Positions 2,380 to 60,572 of a stretch of 64,000 nt of DNA are shown in pieces. The position numbers and the translations under genes are program-made. This DNA is from Pseudomonadales bacterium (GTDB lineage: Bacteria; Pseudomonadota; Gammaproteobacteria; Pseudomonadales; Azotimanducaceae): positions 4,977,809 to 5,041,808 of the forward strand of contig OY762070.1 of assembly GCA_963665195.1 (NCBI GenBank). Direction: 5' to 3'. The stretch's first letter is position 1, and each line of letters begins with the position of its first letter. The notes beneath the pieces were generated by a model. The model ran no database searches. It was given only the letters and a program-made list of their open reading frames with translations, and had not been told where the DNA came from.

Positions 2380-2394
2380 GGAGTCTGGCCTAAA

Positions 2395-5278: not shown

Positions 5279-5298
5279 CGGGAAAGGACAGAGCAAGC

Positions 5299-6791: not shown

Positions 6792-7020
6792 CCCTCGCCT
6801 AGCCCAACGGCGGGCTGGTCGGCGCGACCGAGGTTGTTGCTGATCGCGACCATCTCCTCGGCTACGACCTCGGTCTATCGGACGAGGCGGTGCTGGACGT
6901 CAGCCCATGCACGACCGAGCGGCGCACGGACGGAAAGGCCAGCGCCAACACCGGTGGCGGCGCCTCGTCGACCGCGTAGCAAAGCGCGTGGGAGGGGGAA
7001 TCGCCGTCATTCTCGCTCAT
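6789..7020 (-). pseudogene. possible remnant of a nucleobase:cation symporter (NCS2)-like gene
   Basis: ATG at 7020 opens MSENDGDSPSHALCYAVDEAPPPVLALAF, which resembles the conserved NCS2 N-terminus (Y.LED.PP....L). The frame stops after 52 codons, and a second frame ends on a stop overlapping the DM13 stop. Confidence 0.25.
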
Positions 7021-37110: not shown

Positions 37111-37225
37111 ATGGCGGCGAGTTTAGGTCTGCCGAAGGCGCACGGCAACCGCTGTGCTGTCGCGGCTGCCGGCCGCTGCCGCGTCCGCGCTTTCAAACGG
37201 CGCCGCGATGGGCCACACTCGCGGC

Positions 37226-38708
37226 ATGGACAAGCTACCCCTCTACATCGACGGCGCGTTCGTCGACAGCGAAGCTGGCGGCATCGCCGTGACCGATCCC
37301 GCCACCCAGGAAGTGCTCTGCGAGGTGCCTTTCGCGAGCAGCGGCGAAGTGGACCGGGCGGTGCAGGGCGCCCAGGCCGCGTTCGCCTCGTGGCGCGAGA
37401 CGCCGCTGCCGGAGCGGGCGCGGGTGCTGCTCGCCTACCAGCAGTTGCTCAAGGAGCGCCAGGACGACTTGGCGCGGGATCTCTGCCGGGAGACGGGCAA
37501 GACCTTCGAGGACGCCCGCGGCGAGATCTGGCGCGGCATCGAGGTGGTCGAGCATGCCGCCGGGATCGCCTCGCTGATGATGGGCGAGACCGCCGAGAAC
37601 GTCGCCCGCGGCATCGATACGTACAGCCTGGTGCAGCCGCTCGGCGTCTGCGTCGGCATCACGCCGTTCAACTTTCCGGCCATGGTGCCGCTGTGGATGT
37701 TTCCGCTGGCCATCGCCTGCGGCAATACGTTCGTGCTCAAGCCCTCGGAGCAGGATCCGATGACGCCGAACCGGCTCATGGAACTGCTGGCCGAGGCGGG
37801 CGCGCCGCCGGGCGTGGTGCAGGTGGTGCATGGCGGCCGGGAGCAGGTGGATGCGCTGATCGAGCATCCGTCCGTGCGGGCGGTGAGCTTCGTCGGTTCC
37901 GTGCCGGTGGCGCGGGCGGTGTACCGCAAGGCCGCCCAGCACCTCAAGCGAGTGCAGGCGCTTGCCGGGGCGAAGAATCATTTGGTCATCATGCCCGACG
38001 CCGACAAGGAGCAGGCGATCGCGAGCTTGGTCGGCGCGGTCTGCGGCGCGGCCGGACAGCGCTGCATGGCGATCAGCGCCACGGTGCTGGTGGGGGCGGC
38101 GGCGGATTGGCTGCCCGACATCCAGGCCGCGATGGCGGCGGTTCGGCCGGGGCCGTGGGACGACGCCGCCGCGGGCTACGGGCCGCAGATCAGCCGGGCT
38201 GCGAAGGCGCGGATTCTCGGCTACATCGACAAGGGCAAGGCGGAGGGCGCGAAATGCCTGCTCGATGGCGGGCAGTGTACGGTGGACGGCTATCCGGATG
38301 GCAACTGGGTGGGGCCGACCCTGTTCGCGGACGTGACGCCCGGCATGTCGATCTACACGGACGAGATCTTCGGCCCCGTGCTCGTCGCATCGCAGGTGCA
38401 GACACTGGACGACGCCATCTCGCTCATCAATGCCAATCCGTTCGGCAACGGGGTGTCGCTGTTCACATCCAGCGGCGGCGCGGCGCTTCCAGCATGCCAT
38501 CGAGGTCGGCCAGGTCGGCATCAACATCCCCATTCCGGTGCCGCTGCCGTTCTTCTCGTTCACCGGCTGGAAAGACTCCTTCTTCGGCGACCAGCACGTC
38601 TACGGCAAGCAGGCCGTGCGCTTCTACACGGAGACCAAGACCGTCACCGCGCGCTGGTTCGACGATGGCGCAGACGCCCGGGTCAACACGACGATCCGCT
38701 TGCAGTAG
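37226..38708 (+). pseudogene. mmsA: methylmalonate-semialdehyde dehydrogenase (CoA-acylating), frameshifted near codon 420
   Basis: ALDH motifs (ITPFNFP, FVLKPSE, GQRCMA) in frame 1 to about 38485. The conserved C-terminus ([31 protein letters not shown]...TARWF) continues in the +1 frame to TAG at 38708. The break lies in the GC repeat AGCGGCGGCGCGGCGC (38471-38486). Confidence 0.85.
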
Positions 38709-39444
38709 CGCGGTCGTCGAGCAGGCGACTGCCGCCGGCGGCGTCTGGCGCGGCGCCGGTTCGGCAGCTCGCGAGCAGTCTATCGTCCGCCGCGGCCACG
38801 ACCGTGCCGACCTTGCGCCCTTGCTGCAGTACGTCCGCCCCGGGCTGCGGCGCCGCCCCCTCGAATCGGAAGCTGCGCAGCTTGCGCTTCACTTCGCCTA
38901 GATGCTCTGCCCGTGCCACCACCTCCTGACCGAGATAGCAGCCCTTGGCGAAGCTCACCGCGCCAGCATTGGTGAGGCCGAGCATCTGCGGCAGGAAGCC
39001 CTCCGAGACCCGCGCGCCGACGATAGGCAGGCCGGCCCCGACGCAGGCTGCCGCGAATCCCGCGTGGCCTGAGTCGGCGGGCGCATCGAGACAAGCGAAC
39101 CAGTCGAGCGGCGGCAGGGCGATGCACCCCGGTGCGGGTTCCGCCTGGAAGGCGATGCCGCTCGCGCGTCGCTTCAGCTTCGACTTGGCGAACAGCAGAT
39201 ACTTGCCGAGGTGGCCCAGCACGGCTTCGGCGAGTTCCGCGTGGATCAGCAGGCGCACATGCTCCCCGTTGCCCGCTGCCCAACCGTTCGCCAGCACGCG
39301 GCCTTTGATGTTGCACAGCGCCATGGGCATGGCGATGGCCGGCTGAAGGGCGTCCATGTCCGCCGTCGCGTAGCCTTGCAGGAACGCGGCGGCATCGCTG
39401 CCCGCGAGGTCGAGCTGCGCGAACATCGCCTGTGTTGTGCTCAC
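38683..39444 (-). CDS. ygfZ: folate-binding tRNA-modification / Fe-S repair protein YgfZ
   Basis: 253 aa, shorter than typical. Signature [12 protein letters not shown]. Divergent from sdhE as in enterobacteria. Confidence 0.82.
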
Positions 39445-39502: not shown

Positions 39503-39763
39503 ATGTCCGACACCCGCGACTTCGACCGCGTGCTGTGGCGCAGCCGCCGCGGCATGCTGGAGCTCGATCTGCTGCTGGTAGGCTTCGCCCGCGACCGCTA
39601 TCGCGCCCTGTCGCCGGCCTTGCAGGACGCCTACAAGGAACTCCTGACGCTGGACGACTGGCGGGTCTGGGATTGGCTGCAGGAGCGCACGCCCGCGGAC
39701 CGTGCCTTGCGCGGCATCGTCGCGGAGATCGTCGCCTTCAATGCCGGCCAGGACGCGCCATGA
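39503..39763 (+). CDS. sdhE: FAD assembly factor SdhE (YgfY/CptB)
   Basis: 86 aa. RGMLELDLLL motif (RGxxE). Confidence 0.88.
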   Translation: MSDTRDFDRVLWRSRRGMLELDLLLVGFARDRYRALSPALQDAYKELLTLDDWRVWDWLQERTPADRALRGIVAEIVAFNAGQDAP

Positions 39764-40179
39764 ACCCGCACCGCGACGAGACGCACCTCGACTGGCAGCC
39801 CGGCTGGGACTGGCTGCTGCCCGTGGTGGGGCTGCACATCCTCTTCACCGTGCCGTGGGTGGCGGCGCTCGGCTGGTGGGCGCTCGTGCCCGGCGCGCTG
39901 TCGATGCTCTACCACCTCGGCATCTACCGGCGCGGCGAGACCTGGCGCTTCGCCTTCGTCGAGGACGCGGTGGTGCTCTTCGAGCCGGAGCGGCCGGAAC
40001 GCAAGGGCGAGGCGCGGCGTCCGGCAAAGCTGCGCGGCGGGCCTTGGATCACCGCCAACTGGGTGGTCGTGCGCACCAGCCGGCGCGTGCTGGCGATGCA
40101 TGGTTCGCGCTACGACGCGGTGCGCTTCGCGAGGCTCCGGCGGGCCCTCCTCGGCGGACTCGAGGCCGGGAACGGCTGA
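39760..40179 (+). CDS. YgfX/CptA-like inner-membrane protein (copy 1)
   Basis: ATGA overlap with sdhE. Two TM helices ([34 protein letters not shown]). Conserved position after sdhE. Confidence 0.72.
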
Positions 40180-40947
40180 AGCACGTCGAGCGGGTCCGCC
40201 GCCGGGTGGACGATGCTCGGCAGCGCCTGGGCGGCGCGGCGCGGGTAGTCGAGGGTGTAGTGCAGGCCGCGGCTCTCGCGCCGCATGAGCGCCGAACGGA
40301 CGATCAGCTCCGCCACATGCACCAGGTTGCGCAGTTCGATCAGGTCCGGGCCGACGCGGTGGCGGGCGTAGTAGTCGTGGATTTCGCGCTTGAGAAGGTC
40401 GATGCGATGCTGCGCGCGCTCCAGGCGCTTGTTGGTGCGCACGATGCCGACGTAGTCCCACATGAAGCGGCGCAGCTCCGTCCAGTTGTGGCTCAGCACC
40501 ACCTGCTCGTCGGAGTCCGAGACGCGGCTCTCGTCCCAATCCGGCAGTGCGACGGACGGTTGGCGCGCCGCCTCGCTGCGGCGCTGGGCGATGTCGGCGG
40601 CCGCGGCCTGGGCGAATACCAGGCACTCGAGCAGCGAATTGCTCGCCAGTCGGTTGGCGCCGTGCAGGCCGGTGCAGGCCGTCTCGCCAACCGCGTAGAG
40701 GCCGTCGATGTCCGTGCGGCTGGCGAGGTCCACGATCACGCCGCCGCAGGTGTAGTGCGCCGCCGGCACCACGGGGATGGGCTCGCGGCGGATGTCGATG
40801 TCGAGCTCCAGGCAGCGGGCCAGGATGGTGGGGAAGTGGGTTTCGAGGAAGCTGTCTTGCCGATGGCTGATGTCCAGATAGACGCAGCTCGCGCCGAGCC
40901 GCTTCATCTCGTGGTCGATGGCGCGCGCCACGATGTCGCGCGAGGCG
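40110..40947 (-). pseudogene. L-aspartate oxidase 3' fragment (duplicated, lacks the FAD-binding N-terminal 300 codons)
   Basis: Identical to the C-terminal part of nadB at 45547-46384. Homology ends at 40947. A GTG at 41174 creates a chimeric 354-codon ORF with 77 unrelated N-terminal residues. Confidence 0.85.
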
Positions 40948-41175
40948 GAGTAACTCTCGTGCGCCTTGCATGACTCCGGCACGGGCGGGCAAGCCTCCTG
41001 GCCGACCCTGCCACCCCGTTTGAGACCCGCGCCCGCCGAAGCGCGTATGGCCAGCGCTCTGTGCACGGCGTTCGTCAACCCCTCTATGCGCGGCTCCGAA
41101 TCCAAGCCAGCGCACCGCTTGCCGGAGTTCTTTCCGTCTGCCCCCGCAAGCATGGCGCACTGCGCGGCATTCACC

Positions 41176-41799
41176 TCAGCAAGCCACGAGGTCGGCGATG
41201 GCGGGCCAGAAAAGGCCGTCTATTGCGTCAACATCTTGCTCAAACTCAGCGGCTCGCTCACCTAGGGCGTATTTGGCCGGTACTTTGCCTTCCACCATCA
41301 CTGCTTCCATGAGCAGGCGGATCAGCGGCAGACGCAGGTTCCGCTCGTTCGGCACAGATGCCGCCATAGCCAGAAGCGCGAGATGCACCAGCCCGTGAAT
41401 TCTCCCGCTCTCGCTGAGCCGAGCCAGTTCGTCCGCTAGCAATGTGGTGATTCCGGCCCGTTTCAGGCTGTTGACGGCTCCCTTGACAACTACGGCGGAC
41501 GTGTCAGGCGGCCCGACCACGGACATGCCGGCATAAACCGTGACGGCCCAATCTGCTACGGCGCGAGCAAGCTTCTCCCTTGGCCCATTGCCCGATGTTG
41601 CGTTCTTGTCCGCGATGGCACCGCGCAAAGCGGCAGGCCACAGCACGAATGCGCCGACGCCCAGAGAATGAATGCGCCCCAGCCGGCGTCGATCCAACGC
41701 AGGAAGAAGAACAAACCGATCAGAACGACCAGCCAAGCGGCGAACGACCAGTACCTTCTCGTAGTCATTGGATTGCTCCATGCTGTGGGCTGTGCTCAT
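41176..41799 (-). CDS. island hypothetical protein (frame uncertain at the 5' end)
   Basis: Long minus-strand ORF. C-terminal ~170 aa have no recognised domain. An overlapping frame (start 41768) encodes a convincing TM helix, [33 protein letters not shown], so the true product may be a frameshifted membrane-anchored protein. Confidence 0.4.
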
Positions 41800-41896
41800 T
41801 ATCTCCCGGCACACTCTGAACCAGTAGTCCACAGCGGGGACGACTGCATGAAGCTCAACGCCGCTTTCGCCGTGCATTGTCGCCGCCGCTGTCGGC

Positions 41897-42283
41897 TCAG
41901 AACCAGCGGACGCCCACTAGGACGGCGTGCGCAACGGCGGCAATGGCGACGCCCCATTGCTCCGCCCCTGCAACCATGAACCCGTGGTCTGTGAGGTCCG
42001 GCTCCTTGGCTGAGACGCCATAGACCAGAAAGACCCCTAGGAACAGCAGTAGGGGCATCGGGCCACCGAGAAGGGCACCCCAAAGAGCGCCGACGCCAAG
42101 CCACAAGATGACGTTGGCGGACAGAAGGCCGGAGCCAGTGGACGTGCCGGGCGCGATCTTTCCTTGGATGAACGCGAACGGCATCGCAATCAGCCCGGAA
42201 AGCATGGTTGCGAGTCCGAAGAACGTCGCGCCGAACACGATGACGTAGGCGACCACGTTGGCGACAATGAGGGAGGTGGGCAT
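41897..42283 (-). CDS. island small integral membrane protein (128 aa, about 4 TM)
   Basis: ATG preceded by AGGAAGGA. Highly hydrophobic Gly/Ala/Leu-rich sequence. No family recognised. Confidence 0.6.
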   Translation of the reverse strand: MPTSLIVANVVAYVIVFGATFFGLATMLSGLIAMPFAFIQGKIAPGTSTGSGLLSANVILWLGVGALWGALLGGPMPLLLFLGVFLVYGVSAKEPDLTDHGFMVAGAEQWGVAIAAVAHAVLVGVRWF

Positions 42284-42707
42284 CGGGCCGGTCCTTCCTA
42301 CCCGTCTCGGCAGGGGGCGACCATAGCACAACCCGGCCGCCGCCAAAACGCGGTAGGTTCCCCCGCTCTCGCCGCTCGAACCTTCAACGCTCAGGAGCAA
42401 CATTTACGATCCCCATTGGATCGCATGGCGAGAAGCGCCCCGCCGACGTGATCGGAACACGGTACAGTGCTGCCATGTGTTGTCGGCGACGCGGAGGGCG
42501 AACTCGCCGGTCAGCAGCGCAACGGCGACGTGCTCGGCGCAGGCCCTGAGCGCCGAGCGCCGGTCCGAGATCGCCCGCACCGGCGTCGCAGACGCGCTGG
42601 GGCCTCCTGACGAACAACAGCCGCCGGAAAGACGCCCCGGCAGCGAGTTGCAAACGGCAGCCTCCTGCCGCCGCCGTCGCGTCTCGGTGCGGGAGGGGAA
42701 GCCAGAC

Positions 42708-43160
42708 CTACCTCTCTTGCTTCTCGCCTTTTTCCACAGCGTCGTACCGTTCCACTACCGCCTCCGCAAGACGAGCGTACGCGATCCGCCGCCTGCCATT
42801 CTCGTCCGGAAGGACGATTTCCGCGTGACAGGGCGCGGCTGGCCATTCGGCAGTGGCTGGAAGCGGATCTTCAATAACATCAAGCGGAGTCTCGTTGTCG
42901 TCGGGCTTGATCCTACGTATCGCGTTCACAGCGACCTCCGCGAACTTGGCGTTGGTACCCCGGCTCATCCGCACGAGCTTCCGTACTCGCGCTACCTGCT
43001 CCTCCGAGGTTTCCTCGCCTCCGCACTCCATCCAGTTCACCGATATGTCGCCGTTGTTCGGCACTTCGAAGCCGCGTGGCTGGACTACGCCTTCCTGAAT
43101 CTTGCTGGCTCCTACGTACCTAAGGACTCGATGGCCAGCGGGTAGAGGATCACCCTTCAT
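42708..43160 (-). CDS. island hypothetical protein C (150 aa)
   Basis: ORF whose ATG (43160) lies inside the last codons of the upstream gene (11-nt overlap; an alternative ATG is at 43190). Lower GC. No domain recognised. Confidence 0.55.
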   Translation of the reverse strand: MKGDPLPAGHRVLRYVGASKIQEGVVQPRGFEVPNNGDISVNWMECGGEETSEEQVARVRKLVRMSRGTNAKFAEVAVNAIRRIKPDDNETPLDVIEDPLPATAEWPAAPCHAEIVLPDENGRRRIAYARLAEAVVERYDAVEKGEKQER

Positions 43161-43998
43161 CCTGCAACAACGACTCAAGACCTCGTTCATGCACGAGCGC
43201 TAGCAGTGCCCCTAAGTCCACCGTCTCTGCTTGGCCTCCAACGTCAGAGTGCAGGTTCAATAGTACGTAGTCAACGCCGCCATCTGCGGCGAACTCAAGG
43301 TCAAACCGCCAGTCTTTGTCGCGCCAAGTGGCTGCATAGCGACCATCATCCAAAAGAAACAACCCGTCGGCCCTGCGTGCGCCGGAGACTTCGACGAAGC
43401 GCTGGAACTGCCTTCGCGACTCCGCATCAGGCGCAATTCCTTCATCGATTGCGATCTCCATGAGTTCACGGAGTCGGGCAGTGTAGGCCGACGAGAAGGT
43501 AGTCCTCTGCGAGGCTACCCAGGCGGCATTGAAGACCACCGGCGTTCTCACGAGAAAACCCGTCGATGTCGTAGCGGCCGAGTGGTGAAGCGCGTACCAC
43601 ACTACATGTACGCCAGATTCGAGCACTCCTTCGCTGTTCAGCTTATTCGCTGTGACCTTCTCTCCGAAGTGGTGCCACGCGGAATCCTGGAATACAGACT
43701 CTTCGAGCAGACGCTTTCGGCGAGCAAGGTCGTTTCCGCGGATGAGCACCGAGCTTTCGGCCGGGTCAGACCAATGTCGGTCCTGGGACCGGCTGATCGG
43801 CAGCTCTTCCTCGGCGGGGGCATTGACTACCACGGCAACGAGCTGCTGCGTCCAATGGTCCAACGACGGCCGCAACTGTCGGCCGTCGAGCGTCTGCCGC
43901 TCGGCTAGGTACGGACCATTGGCGCAAACGCCTAGCGGGTGGAGCGCGGTTTCCGCTACCGATGCTGGGGGATTGGGAAGTGCTGCCACGCTCATCAT
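43150..43998 (-). CDS. island hypothetical protein B (282 aa)
   Basis: ATGA overlap with the upstream gene. Lower GC. No domain recognised. Confidence 0.6.
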   Translation of the reverse strand: MMSVAALPNPPASVAETALHPLGVCANGPYLAERQTLDGRQLRPSLDHWTQQLVAVVVNAPAEEELPISRSQDRHWSDPAESSVLIRGNDLARRKRLLEESVFQDSAWHHFGEKVTANKLNSEGVLESGVHVVWYALHHSAATTSTGFLVRTPVVFNAAWVASQRTTFSSAYTARLRELMEIAIDEGIAPDAESRRQFQRFVEVSGARRADGLFLLDDGRYAATWRDKDWRFDLEFAADGGVDYVLLNLHSDVGGQAETVDLGALLALVHERGLESLLQDEG

Positions 43999-44675
43999 GC
44001 TGACCCGCTCGCGCGAAGATCAACCGCACCAATAACGGCACGCACATGGGACTGCAGGCGGTCCATGGCTTCCTCCATCGCCCCGAGCGACGGGGGCAGA
44101 TCACCGCAATCATTGATGTGATAGTTAGCCTGCAGGTATACGCGCTCGGTCTCCAAGTCCTTGCGACGGGGTTCCAGCGTAACGGTCAAGAGCCCGCCGT
44201 CCGAGCAACGTAACTTAATCTCCGCGGAGACGCCTCCCAACAGCTCGTCGATTCCAGTGACATCGGCCACGTCCGTGTACAGAGCCTTGCCAAGGTACTG
44301 AAAGGCCGACAAGCCGGATTGCTGCTCGTAGACTAGGGCGACGTTACAGCCGTACGAGGCCAGCGAGGCGCCTGACTCCGTGAGCATTATCGCAGACGAC
44401 ATTAGCCTACACACTCTGGTTGCGTCATCGAAATCGCGAGGATACTCGACCACGGCCTGGACACGGCGATCTTCCCCTACGGACAGCTCCATTCGATCAC
44501 GGTCGATTACGAATCGTCGAACGGGACTCATCCTTGCCGGACCAGCAATGGTTGCCAACTCGAGCGTGGCCTCCCACTGGGAGCAGAAGGCACTTGCCGC
44601 ACTCTCGTCGGTGAGAAGGTCCGTGCCCACGAGCACGACACTCGCACTCAGAATGTCCATGATGTCGGGTGCCAT
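43995..44675 (-). CDS. island hypothetical protein A (226 aa)
   Basis: ATG overlaps the TGA of the 47-codon leader ORF by 1 nt. Lower GC. No domain recognised. Confidence 0.6.
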   Translation of the reverse strand: MAPDIMDILSASVVLVGTDLLTDESAASAFCSQWEATLELATIAGPARMSPVRRFVIDRDRMELSVGEDRRVQAVVEYPRDFDDATRVCRLMSSAIMLTESGASLASYGCNVALVYEQQSGLSAFQYLGKALYTDVADVTGIDELLGGVSAEIKLRCSDGGLLTVTLEPRRKDLETERVYLQANYHINDCGDLPPSLGAMEEAMDRLQSHVRAVIGAVDLRASGSA

Positions 44676-44818
44676 CAGGTGAGGTCGCTTAGGTTCTGGC
44701 CATGCCGGCCGGGGTCACGCAGCGTAGCGTCCATGGTCACGCGTTCCCGTTTCGATTCGGCTTGCACGACATCAGGCCGGGTCGCCACCTCAACGATGGG
44801 CGTCCACTCGTCGTCCAT
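44675..44818 (-). CDS. island small ORF (47 aa, acidic N-terminus), first gene of the cassette
   Basis: Below the ORF-track size cut-off. Found by hand: AAGGAGGA sits 6 nt upstream of ATG 44818. Product MDDEWTPIVEVATRPDVVQAESKRERVTMDATLRDPGRHGQNLSDLT. The stop overlaps the next start. Confidence 0.45.
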   Translation of the reverse strand: MDDEWTPIVEVATRPDVVQAESKRERVTMDATLRDPGRHGQNLSDLT

Positions 44819-45149
44819 CCGGTCCTCCTTTCGTTAGTTGTGACCGTGCGGTCCACATGGTAGTTCAACCGGTGCCGTGTAGCGCGTCGTCCTCAGGGCC
44901 TGCAACGGCTCCGTAGTGCCCACCTGCTCCGAAGCGAGCTTTCGGCGTGCTGGCAAGACGTGGCTGTTCTTCCCGCCTCGCCGGTCGCGAAAGCCCCATC
45001 ATGAGGCATGACCCCATCACGTCGGCGGGCCGCTCCTAGGCACTCCTTCCACTCGGCGTGTCCTCTCTTCCGGATCGTTCGATGCACGAGTATGACAGAG
45101 TACGGCGTCGTGCGCGACGCCGCTGTGGCTTCAAGGCTGTGGCCACATA

Positions 45150-46384
45150 GGCATCGTCGCGGAGATCGTCGCCTTCAATGCCGGGCAGGACGCGCCGTGA
45201 ACCCGCACCGCGACGAGACGCACCTCGACTGGCAGCCCGGCTGGGACTGGCTGCTGCCCGTGGTGGGGCTGCACATCCTCTTCACCGTGCCGTGGGTGGC
45301 GGCGCTCGGCTGGTGGGCGCTCGTGCCCGGCGCGCTGTCGATGCTCTACCACCTCGGCATCTACCGGCGCGGCGAGACCTGGCGCTTCGCCTTCGTCGAG
45401 GACGCGGTGGTGCTCTTCGAGCCGGAGCGGCCGGAACGCAAGGGCGAGGCGCGGCGTCCGGCAAAGCTGCGCGGCGGGCCTTGGATCACCGCCAACTGGG
45501 TGGTCGTGCGCACCAGCCGGCGCGTGCTGGCGATGCATGGTTCGCGCTACGACGCGGTGCGCTTCGCGAGGCTCCGGCGGGCCCTCCTCGGCGGACTCGA
45601 GGCCGGGAACGGCTGAAGCACGTCGAGCGGGTCCGCCGCCGGGTGGACGATGCTCGGCAGCGCCTGGGCGGCGCGGCGCGGGTAGTCGAGGGTGTAGTGC
45701 AGGCCGCGGCTCTCGCGCCGCATGAGCGCCGAACGGACGATCAGCTCCGCCACATGCACCAGGTTGCGCAGTTCGATCAGGTCCGGGCCGACGCGGTGGC
45801 GGGCGTAGTAGTCGTGGATTTCGCGCTTGAGAAGGTCGATGCGATGCTGCGCGCGCTCCAGGCGCTTGTTGGTGCGCACGATGCCGACGTAGTCCCACAT
45901 GAAGCGGCGCAGCTCCGTCCAGTTGTGGCTCAGCACCACCTGCTCGTCGGAGTCCGAGACGCGGCTCTCGTCCCAATCCGGCAGTGCGACGGACGGTTGG
46001 CGCGCCGCCTCGCTGCGGCGCTGGGCGATGTCGGCGGCCGCGGCCTGGGCGAATACCAGGCACTCGAGCAGCGAATTGCTCGCCAGTCGGTTGGCGCCGT
46101 GCAGGCCGGTGCAGGCCGTCTCGCCAACCGCGTAGAGGCCGTCGATGTCCGTGCGGCTGGCGAGGTCCACGATCACGCCGCCGCAGGTGTAGTGCGCCGC
46201 CGGCACCACGGGGATGGGCTCGCGGCGGATGTCGATGTCGAGCTCCAGGCAGCGGGCCAGGATGGTGGGGAAGTGGGTTTCGAGGAAGCTGTCTTGCCGA
46301 TGGCTGATGTCCAGATAGACGCAGCTCGCGCCGAGCCGCTTCATCTCGTGGTCGATGGCGCGCGCCACGATGTCGCGCGAGGCG
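45150..46384. repeat. 1,235-bp direct repeat, right copy
   Basis: See 39713-40947. Confidence 0.93.
45197..45616 (+). CDS. YgfX/CptA-like inner-membrane protein (copy 2, no intact sdhE upstream)
   Basis: Same protein as 39760-40179, but the start codon is GTG (SNP), and only the last 47 nt of sdhE precede it. Confidence 0.65.
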
Positions 46385-47292
46385 AGCTCGGCCCTCGGAT
46401 CGAAGCGCTCCATGAAGCGCGTGCCGTCCGGCAGCAAGAGCTTGCCACCTTCGCCGCGCACGGCTTCCGAGATGAGAAAGGAGCGCGCTTCGGGGTGGTA
46501 CAGGCAGGTGGGATGGAACTGGTTGAACTCCATGTTCGCCACTCGGCAGCCGGCCCGCCAAGCCATGGCGATGCCATCGCCCGTCGCGCCGTCGGGATTG
46601 CTTGTGTAGAGGTAGGCCTTGCTCGCGCCGCCGGTGGCAAGCACCACGAAGGGCGCCTCGAACACTTCCACCGCATCTGCGGCGCTGTGGTAGGCGTAGG
46701 CGCCGAGCACGCGGTTCTGCCGATGTTCGGGTGCCGGCAGGGGAATGGCGTTGCCGTCCGACGTGCGTGGTCGCTGACGCTTGGAACGCTCGCCCCGGGC
46801 GAACTTCTGGGTGGTGGCAATGTCGATGGCCACCCGGCCGCTCTGGATGTCGATATTCGGATGTGCCCGCGCCCGTTCGATCAGCGTCCTGCCGATCGCC
46901 GCGCCGGTCGCGTCCGCTACATGCAGCACGCGCCGATGGCTGTGCCCGCCCTCCCGGGTGAGATGCGGCTCGCCGTCCTCGCGGTCGAAGCTAAGCCCCA
47001 TGTCCACCACGTGCTGGATGGCCTGCGGCCCGCGCGACACGGCGAACCGCACGGCCTCTGCGTCGCATAGACCAGCGCCGGCGGCGATCGTGTCCTCGAT
47101 GTGCGACTCGAAGCTGTCGCTGGCCGCAGTAACCGCCGCAACGCCGCCTTGGGCGCGGTTCGTCGCCCCGCCATGCACGGCGTCCTTCGACAGCACGGTG
47201 ACCTGGGCGTCGTCCGCCAGGCGCAGCGCAGTGGCAAGCCCGGCCGCCCCGCTGCCGATCACCAGCACATCCGTTCGAGTCCGATTCGCCAC
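45547..47292 (-). CDS. nadB: L-aspartate oxidase
   Basis: [15 protein letters not shown] motif, [23 protein letters not shown], and C-terminal [14 protein letters not shown] start. About 25 extra residues ([27 protein letters not shown]) relative to the typical NadB as I recall it. The 3' end overlaps ygfX copy 2 by 70 nt. Confidence 0.92.
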
Positions 47293-47461
47293 GCGAGGAA
47301 CCGTTGCGTTTTCGTTGCAGCGAGTATAGCGCCGGGGTCCGGCGCTAGTGTGCCGTCGCGGAATCGCCTGACATATGCCGCGCAGTCGAGCGTCTCCCAC
47401 CAAGCGTCGTTTGGTGGTCAAATGAGGTCCGACGAGGCGCTCCGCCGTGGACGGATGCGCG

Positions 47462-52080: not shown

Positions 52081-53727
52081 TCAGCGCACGGGATCCCCCG
52101 CGCCTTGGCGGAGCTCCCACACCTGGCCCGCGCCGAAATCGCCGAAGCGCTCGGTCTCGCCGTCGGGCCAGCGGACATGAACGTCGCTCGCGGCTTCGGC
52201 GGCGCCCAGGCCGAAGTGGACCATCGGTTCGTTGGACGACAGGTAGCTCGCTGCCGGCTGCACGTCTCGATGCTGGCGCCTGTCGCCGATCCGCGCGGAC
52301 ACGGTCGCCGCATGGGCGTCGCGCCCTTCGCCGGTGAGGACGCGGAAGCGAACCCAGTTGCCGCGCTCGGCGACACGATTCATGAGGAGGTACGGCGGCG
52401 CGTCGCGGTTCACGACCAGGAGGTCCAGGCCGCCGTCGCCGTCCACATCGCCAACGGCCAGGCCGCGGCTCGTGTGTACCAGCGGAGACGCCACGCCGCC
52501 GCCCGGCGCGACGATCTCGAAGCGCCCGTCGTCGCCGGCGCGGAACAGCACATTCGGCTCCGCGAACGGGTCCGCTTCCTCCTCGGAGACGTGAGCTATG
52601 GCGCCGTTGGCGTGGTAGAGGTCGAGGCGCCCGTCGTTGTCGAAGTCGGCCAGCGCGACGCCGAAGCGGGTGTATTGGCGGCTCGCGATATTGAGGCCCG
52701 CCTCGGCGGTGGCGTCGTCGAACCAGGCGCCGGCGTTGCGGTACAGCGAGTCCGTCTGCCCCGCCAAGTTCATCACCAAGATGTCCACATCCTGATCGTC
52801 GTCGATGTCGGCCGCGGCGACGCCCATGCCGGCCTTGGCTTCGCCGGACTCGTCCACGCCGCAGCCCCAGTCCATGGCGGATTCCTCGAAGCGCAGGTCG
52901 CCTTGGTTGAGCCAGAGCTGGTTCACCATCATGTCGTTGGCGACGAATACGTCCGTGCGACCGTCGCCATCGTAGTCGGCCCCGACCACGCCGAAGCCGT
53001 TGCCGAAGGCCAGATGCAGCCCGGCATGGCGGCTCACGTCCGTGAACGTGCCGTCGCCGTTGTTGCGGAAAAGCTTGTCCGGTGCCGGCGCCTTGTAGTT
53101 CTGCGGCGGGCAGTAGGAGCGAATGCCCGCCATGTAGCACTCCAGCTCGGTGTCGCTCTGCCACTCGGCGTAGTTGCGCCACTGGACGTAGTTGGCAAGG
53201 AAGAGATCGAGGTCGCCGTCGGCATCGAGGTCGAGGAAGGCGGCCGACGCGCCCCAGCCCGAATCGGCCACGCCCGCGGCGGCGGCGACGTTGTCGAAGC
53301 GGCCTTGGCCGTCGTTCTTGAGCAGCAAGTTGGCGCCGACGTTGGTGACGTAAAGGTCCACGTCGCCGTCGTTGTCGTAGTCGCCCGCGGCCACGCCCAT
53401 GCCGTAGCCATCGGCGCCCGGCGGCGACGGGCCGGCCTCGAAAGAGCCGTCGCCGCGGTTGAAGTAGACGCGGTCGGCCGCGCCCGAGCCGCCGCCGAGA
53501 TCGCCGCTCTGCACCAGGTAGGAATCTAGGTCGCCATCCCCGTCGAGGTCCGCAAGGGCCGCGCCGCTGCCCGCGACCTCGGGCAGGAAGTAGCGCCCAT
53601 CGAACCCGGTGGCATGGCGGTAGTCGATGCCGCGCAGCGCCGCTTCCTCTTGGAACCACGGCGCGGGTGCCGTCGGCGCGCTCGGCTCGCATGCGCTCAA
53701 CAAGCACGCCAACGCGACGCTGTGCAT
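52081..53727 (-). CDS. CRTAC1-family protein (FG-GAP/VCBS repeats plus ASPIC/UnbV C-domain), lipoprotein
   Basis: Lipobox LLSAC. Repeated D.D.DGD.D motifs, and a C-terminal GNWVRFRV....YLSSNEP.VHFGLG block. Confidence 0.85.
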   Translation of the reverse strand: MHSVALACLLSACEPSAPTAPAPWFQEEAALRGIDYRHATGFDGRYFLPEVAGSGAALADLDGDGDLDSYLVQSGDLGGGSGAADRVYFNRGDGSFEAGPSPPGADGYGMGVAAGDYDNDGDVDLYVTNVGANLLLKNDGQGRFDNVAAAAGVADSGWGASAAFLDLDADGDLDLFLANYVQWRNYAEWQSDTELECYMAGIRSYCPPQNYKAPAPDKLFRNNGDGTFTDVSRHAGLHLAFGNGFGVVGADYDGDGRTDVFVANDMMVNQLWLNQGDLRFEESAMDWGCGVDESGEAKAGMGVAAADIDDDQDVDILVMNLAGQTDSLYRNAGAWFDDATAEAGLNIASRQYTRFGVALADFDNDGRLDLYHANGAIAHVSEEEADPFAEPNVLFRAGDDGRFEIVAPGGGVASPLVHTSRGLAVGDVDGDGGLDLLVVNRDAPPYLLMNRVAERGNWVRFRVLTGEGRDAHAATVSARIGDRRQHRDVQPAASYLSSNEPMVHFGLGAAEAASDVHVRWPDGETERFGDFGAGQVWELRQGAGDPVR

Positions 53728-53816
53728 GACTCCGGCACGGGCGGGGGCAAGCCCCGCTCCGACACGCCGTGGGTACCGTGACGACTTCCATTCGCGCGAA
53801 CACGGGGGCCGCACGG

Positions 53817-55244
53817 CTACATCGACCGAAGATTGCCGGGATGTCGTGGGCCGCTCCGCTGCAACGCCGCTAGCCGTCGGCGAGCGGAGGCGCGTTCCGC
53901 GTCGTGGGTGGCTAGGCGGTCGGCCCAGTCGAGGGCTTGTTCGGCTTCGTCGAGTCGGCCTGCTTCGGCGAGGCACCGGCCGAGGTGGACGTAGGCCATG
54001 GTGAAGGCGGCATCGATGCGCACGGCTTCTTGGAATCGTGCTGCGCCTTCCTGCCAGCGTTGCTTGGCGCCATGGAGCAGGCCCAGGCGGTAGAGCACAT
54101 GCTTCGGTTCCCGGGCGCCAGCGTCGAGGGCTCGCTCCAAGAGGTCGATCCCTTCGTCCGTGCGGCCTTGCTGGGCGAGCAGCCAGCCGAGCTGCTCCAA
54201 GGCGCGGGCGTTGTCGGGCACCAGCTTCGTCACTTCTTCCAAGTGGCGGCGGGCGCTGGCCGCATCGCCTTCCTGCAGGTAGGCGTTGGCGAGCATCTGG
54301 TGCAATCGGGGTTCGTCCGGATAGCGCTTGAGGCCCGCGTACAGCACCGACTTGGCCGTGCCGAAGCGCTCCAGGGCGGCGTTGGCCCAGACGAGGGTGT
54401 TGATGGCGGCGATGTCGTCCGGGCGTTCGGCCAGCAGTTCCTTCGCCAATGGCAGCGCGACCTTTGCACGGCCGGCTTGGATCAGGCTCTGGGCGTGCTG
54501 CAGTAGATTGCCGAAACCGGCGATGTAGGGCGTGCGCCGGGCGAGACGCGGGTCCAGCCACTGCATGGCGGAGGGTGCGCTGGCGCCTCTGGCGGCGGCG
54601 ATGCGCGCGTCGTCGTTGCGGCCGAGGGCGCGATAGGCGCGGCCGAGCAGCACCTCGATGCGCGGGTCCGGCGAGCGGGCGGCGAGCGGCTCCAGCATTG
54701 CCACGGCCTCCTCGAAACGCCGCTCTTCGACCAGAAGGCGCGCGTGGCCCATGATGGCCGGTGCGCCGGCGCCGAGTTCGGCGGCGCGCTCGAAGGCGGC
54801 GCGCGCATCGCCCAGGCGACCGAGTTCGCGCAGCCACTCGCCGCGGTAGAGCCATGCCGGGACGTAGCCGTCATCGAGGGCGATGGCGGCGGCGAGCGAG
54901 TCGAGTGCGCCTTGGTAGTCGGCGTTCTCTCGCGCCATCAGCAATGCCCGGAAGTATGGCCACTCGAAGTCGTCCGGCGCCAGTGCCGCCGCTTGGCCGT
55001 AAGCGGCGATGGCGCGCTGCGGGAAGCCGTTGACGTCGTAGGCCATGGCGAGCTCGGCGCGCGGCTCGGCAGCGCCGGGGTTTCGTGCCGCGGCATCGTG
55101 GCGGACCTGCAGCGCGGCCATGAGTCTGGCCTCGTCGCCGGCGGGAGGCGTCGGCAGTTGCATCGAAGGGCCGTCGAAGCAGCCGGCGATCAGCAGGCAC
55201 GGCAGCAGCCAGACCCCTCGCTGACGCTTGGCGTCGCGGGCCAC
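53817..55244 (-). CDS. TPR-repeat lipoprotein
   Basis: GTG start giving VARDAKRQRGVWLLPCLLIAGC (lipobox), followed by numerous TPR-like helical repeats. Confidence 0.75.
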   Translation of the reverse strand: MARDAKRQRGVWLLPCLLIAGCFDGPSMQLPTPPAGDEARLMAALQVRHDAAARNPGAAEPRAELAMAYDVNGFPQRAIAAYGQAAALAPDDFEWPYFRALLMARENADYQGALDSLAAAIALDDGYVPAWLYRGEWLRELGRLGDARAAFERAAELGAGAPAIMGHARLLVEERRFEEAVAMLEPLAARSPDPRIEVLLGRAYRALGRNDDARIAAARGASAPSAMQWLDPRLARRTPYIAGFGNLLQHAQSLIQAGRAKVALPLAKELLAERPDDIAAINTLVWANAALERFGTAKSVLYAGLKRYPDEPRLHQMLANAYLQEGDAASARRHLEEVTKLVPDNARALEQLGWLLAQQGRTDEGIDLLERALDAGAREPKHVLYRLGLLHGAKQRWQEGAARFQEAVRIDAAFTMAYVHLGRCLAEAGRLDEAEQALDWADRLATHDAERASARRRLAALQRSGPRHPGNLRSM

Positions 55245-55252
55245 CGAAGGAC

Positions 55253-56116
55253 TCAGAGGTCCAGCATCTCCGCGCATCGGCGGCGGTCGTCGACGCGGAT
55301 GTCGTCGGTTTCGCAGCGGATGCGGACCGCGTTGATGGGATAGCGGGACGGGCCGGTGATGCGCCATGCGCGGCCCTTGCGGAAGCGCGACTGGCGGCGC
55401 TCCACCTCGACCGTCTGGCCGGCCTTGAGGCGCGCTTGGGTTGCGCGGTCGCTGACGAAGAGGTAGCGCTGGTCGAGGGCGATCACTTGCCGTTCCAGGA
55501 TCGACTGGTGGATGCGGGTGACTTCGGCGGAGAAGCTGTCGGCGGGCGGTGCCGATGGGCCGGGTTGCGGTGCAGAATCCTCGGACGGGCGCTCGGCGCC
55601 GTACGTCTGCTCCTCCATGGCGGGTGGCCGGCTTGGGCGCGGCCGCGGTACCGCGCGCGGCTCCGGCGGCGGTGCCTCGACTGCGGGTAGCGGCCCTGGT
55701 GCTGGCGCCGCCGGCTGCGGTGCTGGACGGGCCGGTTGGCGAGCGGGTTGCGGCGTTCCAGCCTCGGCCGGCGGGGGCCGCTCGATCCGGCGGGCGGGCG
55801 CGGGTTCCGCAGGCGCGGGCCGCTCGATTCGGCGCGCCGGTTCTGCAGGTGCGGGCCGCTCGAAGCGCTGGGCGGGCGCGGGTTCGACAGGCAGCGGCCG
55901 CTCGATGCGCCGGGCTGGCGTCGTCTCGGCCTCCGGTTCCTGCTGCGCCGCGTCGATGCAGGCGCGGCGCACATCGCCGTCGTCGATCGCGAGGCAATCC
56001 ATCACCTTCTCGCATTGTGCCCGGCGCTCTTCGGGCACCCCCTCGCATCCCGTCTGGCCCCAGGCGAAGGGCGCGATGAGGATGCCGAGGGCGATGCAGG
56101 GAATGGGCTTGTTCAT
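55253..56116 (-). CDS. secreted protein with proline-rich tandem repeats
   Basis: Signal peptide MNKPIPCIALGILIAPFAWG, a Cys-containing N-module, four (A)RRIERP.P.EPAPA repeats, a Pro-rich tract, and a C-terminal ~100-aa globular part. Confidence 0.65.
   Translation of the reverse strand: MNKPIPCIALGILIAPFAWGQTGCEGVPEERRAQCEKVMDCLAIDDGDVRRACIDAAQQEPEAETTPARRIERPLPVEPAPAQRFERPAPAEPARRIERPAPAEPAPARRIERPPPAEAGTPQPARQPARPAPQPAAPAPGPLPAVEAPPPEPRAVPRPRPSRPPAMEEQTYGAERPSEDSAPQPGPSAPPADSFSAEVTRIHQSILERQVIALDQRYLFVSDRATQARLKAGQTVEVERRQSRFRKGRAWRITGPSRYPINAVRIRCETDDIRVDDRRRCAEMLDL
55776..55920. repeat. about four tandem 39-42-bp coding repeats
   Basis: GGCCGCTCGAT(C/T/G)CGGCG...GCGGGTTC... units read directly in the sequence. 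Confidence 0.85.
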
Positions 56117-56206
56117 CGGTTTCGCGGCTGTTCCTCGATCCCGAAGGTGGTTGCTAGGCGGGAGCGACGGAAGAAGCCTCAAGCGTCTTCCGCCGCCCCG
56201 GTGCTC

Positions 56207-59200
56207 CTAGAAGCCGACGGTCATGCGCAGGTAGAGCTGCCGGCCCATGATGCTGTCGAGATAGCTCTCGTAGCCGACGCCGGACGGGAACGCATTCGGA
56301 TTGGAGTTGAAGACGTTCCTGATGGCGACGTTGGCGGCCAGATAGCCGAAGCCGAGCACGTCGGGCTGGCGGTACGTGTAGCTCACGTCCCAGTAGGCGC
56401 GGCTCTCGATGCGGCAGTACGGGTTCCGGTCCTGGTCCGTGCAGGCGTCGTTTTCCGTCCAGCTCGTCGTATCCATGCCGTGGTCGTGCGACAGGTAAGG
56501 GTTGCCATCCGAATGCGGCGGGCCGTAGCGGGCGACGATTTCGTCCCAGGAGGCGATGAGGTCGGTGATTGCCTGGTGGTAGCGCACCCCGAAGTGCAGG
56601 GTGTGGTTGTCGCGGAACCAGCGCAGGGACGCATTCACGCGCCACTTCGGCGTCGGCGGTAGCGGCGAGAACAGCGCGTTGTAGGGCCTCCAGAAGGCCG
56701 CGCTGTTGCGGTTGCCGAGGCCGTCCACGCGGAGGCCGGCGAACTGGTGGCCGCTTCCCGGTGCGTAGCGTTGCAGGCTCATCTCTAGGATCTGCGTTGC
56801 CGAGACGCGGAACTCGAAGCTGCCGAGGTCCGGATCGAGCTCGATCATCGGCACGTCCGATGCGTCGAAGCGGTAGCGCATGTTGTAGACCACCGAACGT
56901 ACCCGACTCTCGCCCTGGTTCAGCCAGCCTTCGTTGACCGCGGTGAGCCGACCGCTGGCGTCGCGCTCGATGGTGGCGCCGCCGAGGCCCCGCTCCTGCC
57001 CGGCGATGTAGGAGCGCGCCGCCGCCTCTCGGCATTGCAGTTCGCTCGCGGAGGTCTGCGCGAGGAACACATCCACCGACATGTTGAGCTCGTCCACGTT
57101 GTCGTAGTCGATCAGCGTGCCGGGGCATTGCTGGAGGGCGTAGGTCTGGAACGGGCCGGCGTTCTGGCCGAGGATCACGCCGGCGCCCATGCGCTCCACG
57201 CGGCCGTTGAAGACCACGTTGGTGTAGTCGGCATCGAACACGAAGTCGCCACCGAAGAGGAGCAGGGAGAAGCCGGCGTTCCACAGGTCCGAAACCTCGG
57301 CGCCGAGGCCGCGGTTGGAGGAGTTCTCGCTTACGGCGACGCCGGGGATGCCGCCGCTCTGGCCGAGCGAGCCTGCGCACATGCCGAGTTCCGGCATGGC
57401 ATCGCAGATGTAGTCGGACTGGGTCTCGAAGGTCACGTCGCCCGGTGCCGATGCGAACAGCTGGTAGCTGCCCGGCGGCACGAAGCCCTCCGTGATGCTG
57501 CTGCGCACCGCCAGCCAGTCGGTCGGCTGGTAGCGGATGGCGAGCTTCGGAATCGTCACCTCGAAGCCGGCCGACTGGCCGATGGAGGCGAACGAGGCGT
57601 TGATGTCGAACTCCGTATAGCGCGCCGCGGCCTGGATTTCCATCTGCCCGAAGGTCTCGCTGGAGATCGGCGTGACGCGGAACTCGACGAACGCGGCGCG
57701 CACGTCTTCGGACGTGCCCTGGAAGTCCACGCGGTCAGACGAGATGCCGGCGGCGCCGAGCTGGTCCGGCCGGAACTCTTCGTCCTCGGTGCGCGTGTGG
57801 ACGCCGATCGCCACGCCCACGGGGGTGTCGTTGTACCAGAGGTTGAAGAGCTGGCTGTTGGAGATGCTCAAGTCCAGGATCACCATGCCGACGTCGCGCT
57901 GGACGTGGCGCGGGCTGAGGCCAGCGTTGCGCGTCTCGGTGGAGGTGTTCCAGGCCGGGTCGTCCTTGCTGCGCCAGGATTGGTGCTGGGCCGGCAGAAC
58001 GAGGCCGGTAGCCGGGTCCTGGGACAGCCACGCGGTGGAGAACGGGTTCCAGCAGGAATCGCCGTTCGGGCCGCCCTGGCAGCGCAGACTGCTCACCGTG
58101 AGCGGCCACGCCGGATCCAGCGACACCCATTCGCGACGGCTGTTGTTCCAGATCCAGTCCGCATCCACCAGCCACTCGGTGTCCGGGATGCTGAGCGTCG
58201 TGCCGAGGCGCAGGCGCACGTTCTCCGACAGGCGCCGGTCGTTCAGCGACATGTCCTTGTTCAGCCACGGATAGGACTCGTGAACGTAGGGCTGCTTGGG
58301 GAATGCGCCGATGTAGCCGTGGATGCCGACGCCGGAGTCGCCCATCAGCACGTCGTCGAAGAGGCGGATGCCGCCGCTGGTGAAGGTATCGAGCACGCCG
58401 TCGCCGTCGCTGTCGATGCCGTCCATGTCCGGGTCGAAGCGATCCGGCACGCCGTCGCCGTCGCTGTCCTCGGTCATCGACAGCAGGATCACGCGGTGCA
58501 GCGGATTGAGTTGCCCGGAGCGGTCGTCAAGCTCGGCCTCGTCGGCGATGCCGTCGCCGTTGAAGTCGCGGTCGGGCAGGCCGTCGCCGTTCAGGTCCTG
58601 GGCGAACACCAGCCACTCGCCGGGTTCCTGCAGGTAGTCGTAGCGGCCGTCGCCGTCAACGTCCTCCCAATCGAGCGTCCCGTGGGAAACCAGGATCGGG
58701 CCGCCGAACTGGTAGCCCCATTCCCGCGCGGCCGCCTCGTCGAGGTCGTCGCGGACATGCGCCGGCACGTAGTCGGCGCAGGCGGCGATGCTGGCCGCCA
58801 CTTCCGGCACGTCGCAGACGTTGGAGTCGTCCGCATAGGCGCGGTAGGGGTTGCCCGGCAGGCTGCCGATGGCGATGGGCTGCGTGTGGTCGTAGCGGCG
58901 CACCCCGTTCGGCCATTCGTCGATGGACGGCGCGAAGGTGCGGGTGGAGTAGTCGAGCCTGGAGAACACCGCCTCGCCGCGCACGGTGACGTAGTCGTTG
59001 AACTCGTGCTCGAAGTAGGCCATGCCCTGTTCCTGATCGCGGCGCTCGCGGATGTCCGTGATGTCCGTGATGGTGTAGCGGCAGTCGCTGCCGAAGGCCT
59101 GGTTGGTTTCCGTGCCTCGGGAGCGCGTCTCCTGGCCGCGCCAAGTGCCGGTGGAGAAGCCGTTCAGGAAGTTGCCGTTGTGTACCGTGTCGTTCTGGCC

Positions 59201-60454: not shown

Positions 60455-60572
60455 AGGCCTCTCCTGGTGTTTTGGATGTGTACGAGACATGCAGGGCGGC
60501 TGGCGCCCATCGCAAGACTCCCCTTCAACCGCGCATTAAGGCGGTTCGGCCGGGGCATGTCAAGCCGAGTTG

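Follow-up and report, generated by a model that had tools for sequence, protein, structure and literature searches.

A foreign 4.2-kb island between 1.2-kb copies of the sdhE-nadB region in a Pseudomonadales bacterium, apparently gained without a mobile-element recombinase

Genomic islands are mostly described in terms of integrases, transposases or double crossovers in conserved flanks. Foreign DNA can also come to lie between two direct copies of a host segment when a circular molecule carrying that segment recombines once with the chromosome, and this architecture, the Campbell cointegrate or insertion-duplication, is a textbook one. Processes with a single homologous anchor form a further group: homology-facilitated illegitimate recombination is documented in one report (PMC3240628), and transformation-driven interchromatid integration giving tandem duplications in another (PMC3784515). 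Here we describe an island in a stretch of 64,000 nucleotides (nt) from a Pseudomonadales bacterium of the Azotimanducaceae (assembly GCA_963665195.1, contig OY762070.1, positions 4,977,809 to 5,041,808). The whole of this stretch is called the window, and all coordinates refer to it. At positions 40948 to 45149 a block of foreign DNA, the cargo, separates two copies of a host segment that we call H. Judged from the sequence, this is a real and recent insertion-duplication made without a mobile-element recombinase; the sequence does not settle the exact route by which it was made.

The boundaries of H were agreed on by a repeat-finding tool, base-by-base extension and self-BLAST. Both copies have the same orientation and form an ungapped direct repeat of 1,235 bp with 2 mismatches (99.84% identity), and sequence likeness drops off sharply outside both ends. 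A repeat of this length and identity (99.8%) cannot have arisen by chance. H is made up of the final 51 nt of sdhE, a ygfX-like open reading frame (ORF) of 139 codons and, on the opposite strand, the final 838 nt of nadB, which overlap the ygfX-like ORF convergently by 70 nt. From left to right, the locus comprises:

39503 to 39763, plus strand: intact sdhE, 86 amino acids (aa), Pfam Sdh5 at E 7e-20; its final 51 nt lie inside the left copy of H
39713 to 40947: left copy of H (repeat search, extension, self-BLAST)
39760 to 40179, plus strand: first copy of the ygfX-like ORF, 139 aa; its ATG start overlaps the sdhE stop as ATGA
40110 to 40947, minus strand: orphan 3' fragment of nadB, 838 nt, matching FAD_binding_2 at positions 290-414 only, plus Succ_DH_flav_C
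40948 to 45149: foreign cargo, 4,202 bp, set apart by GC and tetranucleotide composition and without plasmid or phage match
45150 to 45200, plus strand: orphan last 51 nt of sdhE, part of the right copy of H
45150 to 46384: right copy of H (repeat search, extension, self-BLAST)
45197 to 45616, plus strand: second copy of the ygfX-like ORF, with a GTG start and no sdhE partner upstream
45547 to 47295, minus strand: intact nadB, covering FAD_binding_2 1-414 of 414; its exact start is uncertain, the ORF being open to 47421

The sole orphaned host pieces are thus the 3' fragment of nadB and the 51-nt fragment of sdhE. Intact nadB is transcribed towards the cargo, and the cargo operons share its strand. 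An earlier reading made from the letters alone (the sequence-only reading) had proposed these flanking repeats, with the left copy following an intact sdhE and the right copy running into an intact nadB; the measurements bear it out on each of these points, the estimate of about 790 nt for the nadB share of H being the figure that had to be corrected. The name ygfX-like reflects only the position of the gene beside sdhE and its size. The window protein has no match to the Pfam family Cpta_toxin (PF07254), against which its orthologue in the relative L002 reaches E 0.063 (13.8 bits, cut-off 27.3).

Relatives carry the same locus uninterrupted. In two of them (L001 and L002, 77% NadB identity) nadB, the ygfX-like gene and sdhE are adjacent, and in L001 nadB and the ygfX-like gene likewise overlap by about 70 nt. 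Three short contigs (L009 to L011, from runs SRR26493820-22), at 87-92% nucleotide identity, have ygfZ, sdhE, ygfX and a partial nadB in one contiguous row. The native state of the locus is therefore left flank, H, right flank (L-H-R). Sampling of this lineage is poor: among 5.8 billion proteins the best NadB homologue has 77% identity, and the ygfX-like protein has only two other members in its cluster, of which the one looked up stems from three short Logan contigs; no relative of it was found in 185,579 species genomes.

The cargo is compositionally foreign. Its guanine plus cytosine (GC) content is 62.3%, against 68.8% in the rest of the window (z -5.0 relative to all other 4.2-kb windows), and its tetranucleotide distance is also atypical (z +6.7 on the same comparison). 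The sequence-only reading had seen the drop in GC and had put it in the high 50s; the drop is real, while values of 58-59% are reached in local 400-nt windows only. The codon-position GC pattern of the five main cargo ORFs is like that of real genes from a genome of about 60-62% GC (about 0.45 at position 2 and about 0.66-0.78 at position 3), and loci elsewhere that carry homologues of the 226-aa cargo gene (L003 to L006 and L008) have 60-63% GC.

No enzyme that could have moved this DNA was recognised. Searches with Pfam, PHROGs, NCBIfam and PADLOC gave no integrase or transposase in the cargo or within about 10 kb of it, and the 64-kb window holds no transfer RNA (tRNA) gene. Terminal repeats of the cargo, inverted or direct, are not above chance; the best terminal inverted match scores 9, and shuffled sequences gave a mean of 8.0 and a maximum of 12. 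Blastn with the cargo found no match in 72,556 plasmids or in 50,697 phage records, and tblastn with the concatenated cargo proteins found none in the same plasmids. Hidden Markov model (HMM) libraries and the terminal-repeat test thus agree with what had been concluded by eye, namely that there is no integrase, transposase, short attachment (att) repeat or inverted repeat. A site-specific integrative island or prophage remnant was rejected, there being no recombinase in the four HMM libraries, no short att repeat, no tRNA target and a repeat of 1.2 kb. A transposon or insertion sequence (IS) was rejected for its missing transposase and a terminal inverted match at shuffle level, and a laboratory suicide vector for the lack of any plasmid DNA or protein match. 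The idea that the right end of the cargo hides a diverged sdhE was discarded too: the sequence there has in-frame stops, and no SdhE-like frame lies upstream of 45150.

The duplication has side products. The second ygfX-like gene (45197-45616), with its GTG start and without an sdhE partner, is to be compared with the complete pair at 39503-40179. In E. coli, YgfX/CptA has been described as a membrane toxin that SdhE/CptB neutralises; if that role holds here, the dosage of the orphan ygfX-like copy could be selected. Both joints are crossed by chimeric frames. At the left joint (40110-41174, minus strand) the nadB 3' fragment runs in frame through 76 cargo codons, in a frame that starts 1 nt past the stop of the 233-aa cargo gene. 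At the right joint (45008-45616, plus strand) the frame of the second ygfX-like copy extends upstream through 63 cargo codons without a stop. These are open reading frames whose expression is putative.

The two copies of H differ by two single nucleotide polymorphisms (SNPs):

39748 C (left copy), 45185 G (right copy): SNP 1, synonymous, sdhE codon 82 GGC/GGG, 12 nt upstream of the ygfX start
39760 A (left copy), 45197 G (right copy): SNP 2, synonymous, sdhE codon 86 CCA/CCG, which makes the start of the ygfX-like ORF ATG on the left and GTG on the right

Both are third positions in the sdhE frame and both fall in the first 48 of the 1,235 nt, the other 1,187 nt being identical. With a uniform spread, the chance that both would fall in the first 48 nt is (48/1235)^2 = 0.0015, or about 0.003 for either end. 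The right-copy alleles, G and GTG, are found in the nearest relatives (L009 to L011), and L001 and L002, which are more distant, have ATG. The cargo-adjacent end of the right copy is therefore relative-like, and the left copy carries the derived or the recipient form. The number of differences, their place at the extreme left end and the change of start codon from ATG to GTG were all correctly noted from the letters, with coordinates (39747/45184 and 39759/45196) that lie one base to the left of the true sites. What does not hold is the interpretation then given, that the SNPs point to a donor allele from a close relative with the crossover to their right. A reciprocal crossover yields the hybrid copies r1+d2 and d1+r2, so that all donor/recipient differences stay visible, on either side of the crossover, and the position of the SNPs is therefore uninformative about the crossover site. 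Nor does their clustering fit a uniformly diverged donor allele.

Self-comparison of the window gave one other long repeat, at 1-1052 and 5744-6792, with a unit of 5,743 bp; its left end falls outside the window. The segment that it encloses is lower in GC and holds toxin-antitoxin (TA)-like ORFs, an ISAzo13-family transposase (2403-3620, minus strand), a HAD hydrolase and a truncated gene resembling one for a 189-aa protein. The right copy truly begins at 5069-5071, where the 77 C-terminal codons of the 189-aa-like gene (minus strand) meet the final 37 of polB (plus strand), and an aldo/keto reductase (AKR) gene and a DM13 gene come after this polB fragment. In the relative L016 the order is polB-AKR-DM13-...-HAD-189aa, and in the window it is (polB)-AKR-DM13, then the TA-like ORFs, ISAzo13 transposase, HAD and truncated 189aa genes, then the polB fragment, AKR and DM13. 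This segment has the same topology as the island at 39713-46384, with a sharp gene-internal joint. Its repeat is a mosaic: positions 1-494 match throughout, 495-1052 show 58 mismatches and 3 gaps, and only in one copy does the divergent tract adjoin inserted DNA. Many differences lie a multiple of three nt apart, and the two DM13 proteins, as counted from the translations, differ at only about a dozen of 166 residues, so that both copies appear to be under selection. Such a mosaic could be given by a one-ended homologous event or by a later independent allelic import. The second case raises the chance of a recurrent process, or else of a recurrent assembly problem.

Formally, the island is a Campbell-type single-crossover cointegrate, because the layout is L-H-cargo-H-R, the flanking genes are intact, relatives are uninterrupted, the cargo is foreign, and no recombinase, att repeat, tRNA gene or terminal inverted repeat is present. 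The route that we tentatively prefer, giving it a little short of an even chance, is one reciprocal homologous crossover between the chromosome and a 5,437-bp circle composed of H and the cargo. Such a circle would have recombined once, by a RecA-type reaction, with chromosomal H, and the reverse crossover between the H copies would release the circle and restore sdhE-ygfX-nadB. Both convergent transcription units have their 3' ends in H, so that sdhE, nadB and ygfX stay intact and the insertion would be neutral to the host. The existence of the circle, the homologous last step and the first formation of the joints 40947/40948 and 45149/45150 are what we infer in this account. The near identity of the copies fits a circle with an H all but identical to that of the host, and then either no further change or a homogenisation that spared the edge. 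Several observations weigh against the circle. The cargo shows no recognisable function for replication, mobilisation or circle formation, and without plasmid functions a circle carrying a host fragment lacks an explained origin. The confinement of the SNPs to 48 nt means that the donor H was nearly identical, that the copies were homogenised later, or that there was no donor H. Finally, the second repeat (within 1-6792), with 0 mismatches over 494 nt and then 58 over 558 nt, is a mosaic beyond what a simple Campbell event could yield from a uniformly diverged donor. The single crossover already proposed by the sequence-only reading hence keeps its formal match in layout and loses its support from the SNPs, and other routes give the same product.

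Of these, a route with one homologous and one illegitimate end seems unlikely as a whole, although it explains the position of the SNPs best of three readings (the Campbell crossover, this one and two illegitimate joins). A linear donor, consisting of the cargo and a short sdhE 3' end, would cross over just right of 45197, and its other end would be joined illegitimately at 40947 of the sister chromatid or of a replicated copy. H would then be mostly duplicated recipient DNA, with only the cargo-proximal 48 or more nt being donor allele, which accounts for the SNPs abutting the cargo in the right copy as well as for the 1,187 identical nt. It agrees with this that the right-copy alleles, G and GTG, are those of the nearest relatives, that the second repeat is a mirror image (the divergent 495-1052 is contiguous with the insert in the left copy, the identical tract lying on the other side) and that the second island has a sharp gene-internal joint at 5069-5071. 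Parts of the route have documented precedents (PMC3784515 and PMC3240628). The donor cargo must, on the other hand, already have abutted the last 17 codons of sdhE, and as no SdhE-like frame precedes the sdhE fragment, the joint 45149/45150 would itself be illegitimate and one extra event would be needed. Homology-facilitated illegitimate recombination usually deletes recipient DNA rather than duplicating it. Two SNPs are also a thin basis, and the second island may owe its mosaic to an allelic import that came later and independently. The abstract of PMC3240628 describes a homologous and an illegitimate end and says nothing of duplicating recipient DNA. Doubtful in a somewhat higher degree is the capture of a linear foreign fragment without any homology between breaks 1,235 nt apart, the breaks being staggered, lying on separate sister chromatids, or being bridged when replication switches template. 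This would leave a giant target duplication with both H copies host-derived and the SNPs later changes in the left copy. Both joints are indeed sharp, gene-internal and without homology, as is the joint at 5069-5071 of the second island; the H copies are virtually identical, and no circle with a host fragment has to be postulated. Yet two later SNPs only 12 nt apart have a chance of about 0.01, a 1.2-kb stagger or template switch is needed, and kb-scale duplication of the target around captured DNA is not known as an established mechanism in bacteria.

A small chance is left to a free 5,437-bp circle of H and cargo beside an L-H-R chromosome, threaded into it by the assembler, or integrated in part of the population. 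Both joints also exist in a free circle, so that junction sequences alone cannot separate the two states. The assembly may hold small errors, a frameshift in an mmsA-like gene lying 1.2 kb upstream, and the 64 kb contain two structures of this type, with units of 5,437 and 5,743 bp. Against this, the source contig of 5.5 Mb implies long reads that would easily span 1.2 kb, the cargo has no recognisable replication gene, and a circle with a host fragment would itself still need explaining. Insertion of a suicide construct with a cloned 1.2-kb arm by a single crossover in the laboratory would give an identical layout, that of suicide-vector insertion-duplication. It is very improbable: the missing plasmid DNA and protein matches mean no resistance marker, oriT, sacB or replicon, the cargo proteins come from environmental families, and the SNPs, 36 and 48 nt into the arm, are farther in than a usual primer reaches. 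A site-specific element or transposon with an unrecognised recombinase has hardly any probability at all. Room for such an enzyme exists in the 233-aa protein and in the N-terminal 165 residues of the 282-aa protein, which have no detectable relatives, but a host-derived repeat of 1,235 bp at 99.8% identity is neither an att site nor a target-site duplication, the cargo has no terminal repeats, and homologous gene trios elsewhere have no flanking repeats. A broader proposal is that both segments of the window arose by one recombinase-independent duplicative route, from linear donors of about 4.3-4.6 kb, by a single homologous crossover and an illegitimate sister-chromatid joint, and that the gene trio of the cargo is a new conflict system made up of a TBP-fold protein, its partner and the 160-aa R/S-x-W/H-A-E protein. 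Taken together these claims are improbable, at about the level of the one-ended route by itself; if such a duplicative route is true, foreign genes were gained with every host gene kept intact.

The preferred crossover, like its rivals, leaves the cargo itself to be described. Read along the minus strand, its genes encode proteins of 47, 226, 282 and 160 aa, followed by a hairpin and by proteins of 168 and 233 aa. In window coordinates they are:

41176 to 41877, minus strand: orphan ORF, 233 aa, whose sole match among 1.84 billion representatives is itself
41897 to 42403, minus strand: hydrophobic, membrane-like ORF, 168 aa, with homologues P0130 (58%) and P0182
42620 to 42644, minus strand: terminator-like hairpin between the two cargo operons, from a consensus scan only
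42708 to 43190, minus strand: 160-aa ORF, third gene of the trio, from a family of about 140-150 aa (AlphaFold2 model with predicted local distance difference test, pLDDT, of 92)
43150 to 43998, minus strand: 282-aa ORF, second gene of the trio, conserved in its C-terminal ~115 residues
43995 to 44675, minus strand: 226-aa ORF, first gene of the trio, with a predicted TBP-like pseudo-dimeric fold (AlphaFold2 pLDDT 95)
44675 to 44818, minus strand: small leader ORF, 47 aa (P0132), with the Shine-Dalgarno motif AAGGAGG; its stop and the start of the 226-aa gene overlap as TGATG

A search for sigma-70-like promoters of the cargo operons found none, and neither iterons nor tandem repeats were found in the cargo. 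An Rfam scan of 38-48 kb gave one sub-threshold match to a eukaryotic internal ribosome entry site, taken as chance. A 44-nt imperfect inverted repeat brackets the trio (42412-42455 and 45013-45056, 75% complementary and perfect over a core of 12-13 nt); pairs of like quality are also found between unrelated parts of the window, and it was set aside as being at chance level.

A phmmer search with the six concatenated cargo proteins returned 346 matches, and the counts given here come from the best 150 of these; representatives are clusters at 50% identity and family sizes are lower bounds. The 226-aa protein belongs to a family of ~220-aa proteins with at least 86 representatives, the best of them 52% identical. 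The 282-aa protein is conserved only over its C-terminal ~115 residues (at least 30 representatives), and the 160-aa protein falls in a family of 140-150 aa with at least 31. Among the matches listed, the 168-aa protein has two relatives and the 233-aa protein none. The families of the trio recur together. In two homologues (P0202 and P0208) the C-terminal domain of the 282-aa type is fused to a protein of the 160-aa type, and at three loci (L012 to L014) the two types are adjacent genes with overlapping ends. At six loci (L003 to L006, L008 and L015) a gene of the 226-aa type is followed by one for ~230-270 aa, and a third gene of ~145-150 aa comes after this pair, none being called in L003 and L008; that of L004 shows the motifs of the 160-aa family at the detection limit (hhalign E 0.012). 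Trio modules elsewhere adjoin an MmeI-like methyltransferase, an Mrr-helicase-methylase restriction enzyme, antitoxins of the BrnA and FitA types and IS fragments. No flanking repeats were found around the homologous trios in L003 and L004, and the duplication thus belongs to the present insertion and not to the module.

Profile searches did not name these families. The cargo proteins have no match in Pfam, PADLOC, PHROGs or NCBIfam, PADLOC 2.0 (5,027 models) assigned 0 defence families to five of them, and 30 and 87 members of the cargo families gave nothing in scans of the same four libraries. PDB sequence profiles likewise gave nothing, and scans of metagenome and viral contigs with the 226-aa family gave no match. 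Structural comparison allowed a fold to be proposed for one protein. The Foldseek matches of the 226-aa model include TATA-binding protein (TBP) at E 3e-5 (probability 1.0, template modelling score, TM, about 0.4), and all 17 of its PDB matches at E<=1e-3 are TBP (probability 1.0, TM 0.34-0.47); RnlA is also among the Foldseek matches. The predicted fold is TBP-like, that is, a helix-grip pseudo-dimer, a resemblance of fold only that says nothing on function. The 160-aa model has no significant Foldseek neighbour; its only geometrically sensible PDB match, the NADase Tne2 (probability 0.28), is a lead only, and its best match in a viral library, an unnamed protein at E 7e-3, was not counted as significant. 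Nearly invariant residues of the 160-aa family are R24, S50-V-N-W53, R70 and H122-A-E, which recall what we take to be an R-S-E catalytic set, again a lead and not a result. On this evidence the trio is probably a conserved module encoding a conflict system, of a defence or TA-like kind, its function being predicted. The three uncharacterised families, which occur together next to restriction-modification genes, make a candidate for a new defence or TA system.

Genes within about 10 kb of the island are of an ordinary housekeeping kind and include an ATP-binding cassette transporter, a PhyH-family dioxygenase, an mmsA-like aldehyde dehydrogenase, ygfZ, a PhoX-like gene and a short-chain dehydrogenase. 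The mmsA-like gene (37154-38929, 1.2 kb upstream) changes frame at about 38470-38500, in a GCGGCG-rich stretch; when the homologue of L002 is aligned with the window, its residues up to 431 match frame 2 and those from 402 onwards match frame 3. Either the gene is a pseudogene or the assembly has an indel error here, which bears on the trust to be placed in the two SNPs. Elsewhere in the window, short tandem repeats occur in coding sequence at 21934-22021 (three overlapping 40-nt copies with 24-nt spacing) and at 55764-55918 (two units of 77-78 nt), and scattered 33-nt Asp/Gly-rich units are found (53200-58468) inside an ORF of 1,442 codons (56207-60535).

Our findings suggest that the island looks like gene capture by ordinary recombination and not by the enzyme of a mobile element. 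A natural recombinase-free island bracketed by 1.2-kb copies of host DNA would indicate that plain recombination can add foreign genes. Here such genes were gained without disrupting those of the host, in a structure that could be released again in circular form. If the second structure, at a distance of 34 kb, arose in the same way, the lineage would be well suited to the study of homology-anchored duplicative gene capture.

Compared with modules of defence islands and TA systems, the cargo is alike in its small coupled genes with overlapping stops and starts, in the fusion of two trio partners in some homologues and in the company that homologous trios keep elsewhere (restriction-modification enzymes, BrnA/FitA antitoxins and IS fragments). 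It differs in matching none of the 5,027 PADLOC models nor any Pfam, NCBIfam or PHROGs family, and in having a 160-aa protein without a significant fold match. Integrase-borne islands at the 3' ends of genes or tRNAs resemble the present insertion in that it also lies at gene 3' ends and its targets are kept by a duplicated gene end. They are bounded by a short att core with a diverged replacement end, whereas this island is bounded by 1.2 kb of near-identical host DNA and has no integrase, excisionase or tRNA gene.

With homology-facilitated illegitimate recombination (PMC3240628), the shared feature would be the entry of foreign DNA without a recombinase through one homologous anchor. That process and interchromatid integration would also share with this locus gene-internal, homology-free joints and duplications through sister-chromatid pairing. 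The pneumococcal duplications (PMC3784515) are of 100-900 kb and use pre-existing repeats, unlike this 1.2-kb case. The closest likeness in form is to Campbell cointegrates such as R-prime and F-prime plasmids and suicide-vector integrants, in which same-orientation host repeats flank unrelated DNA, the native flanks are intact and reversal by recombination between the repeats is predicted. The insert here differs in having no plasmid or vector functions, and differences that would be expected along the whole repeat are found at one end only, a SNP pattern that points away from the simplest Campbell model. Within that family of structures, the locus is unusual as a natural case free of plasmid, vector and recombinase functions, built on a 1.2-kb host repeat and with a second example nearby.

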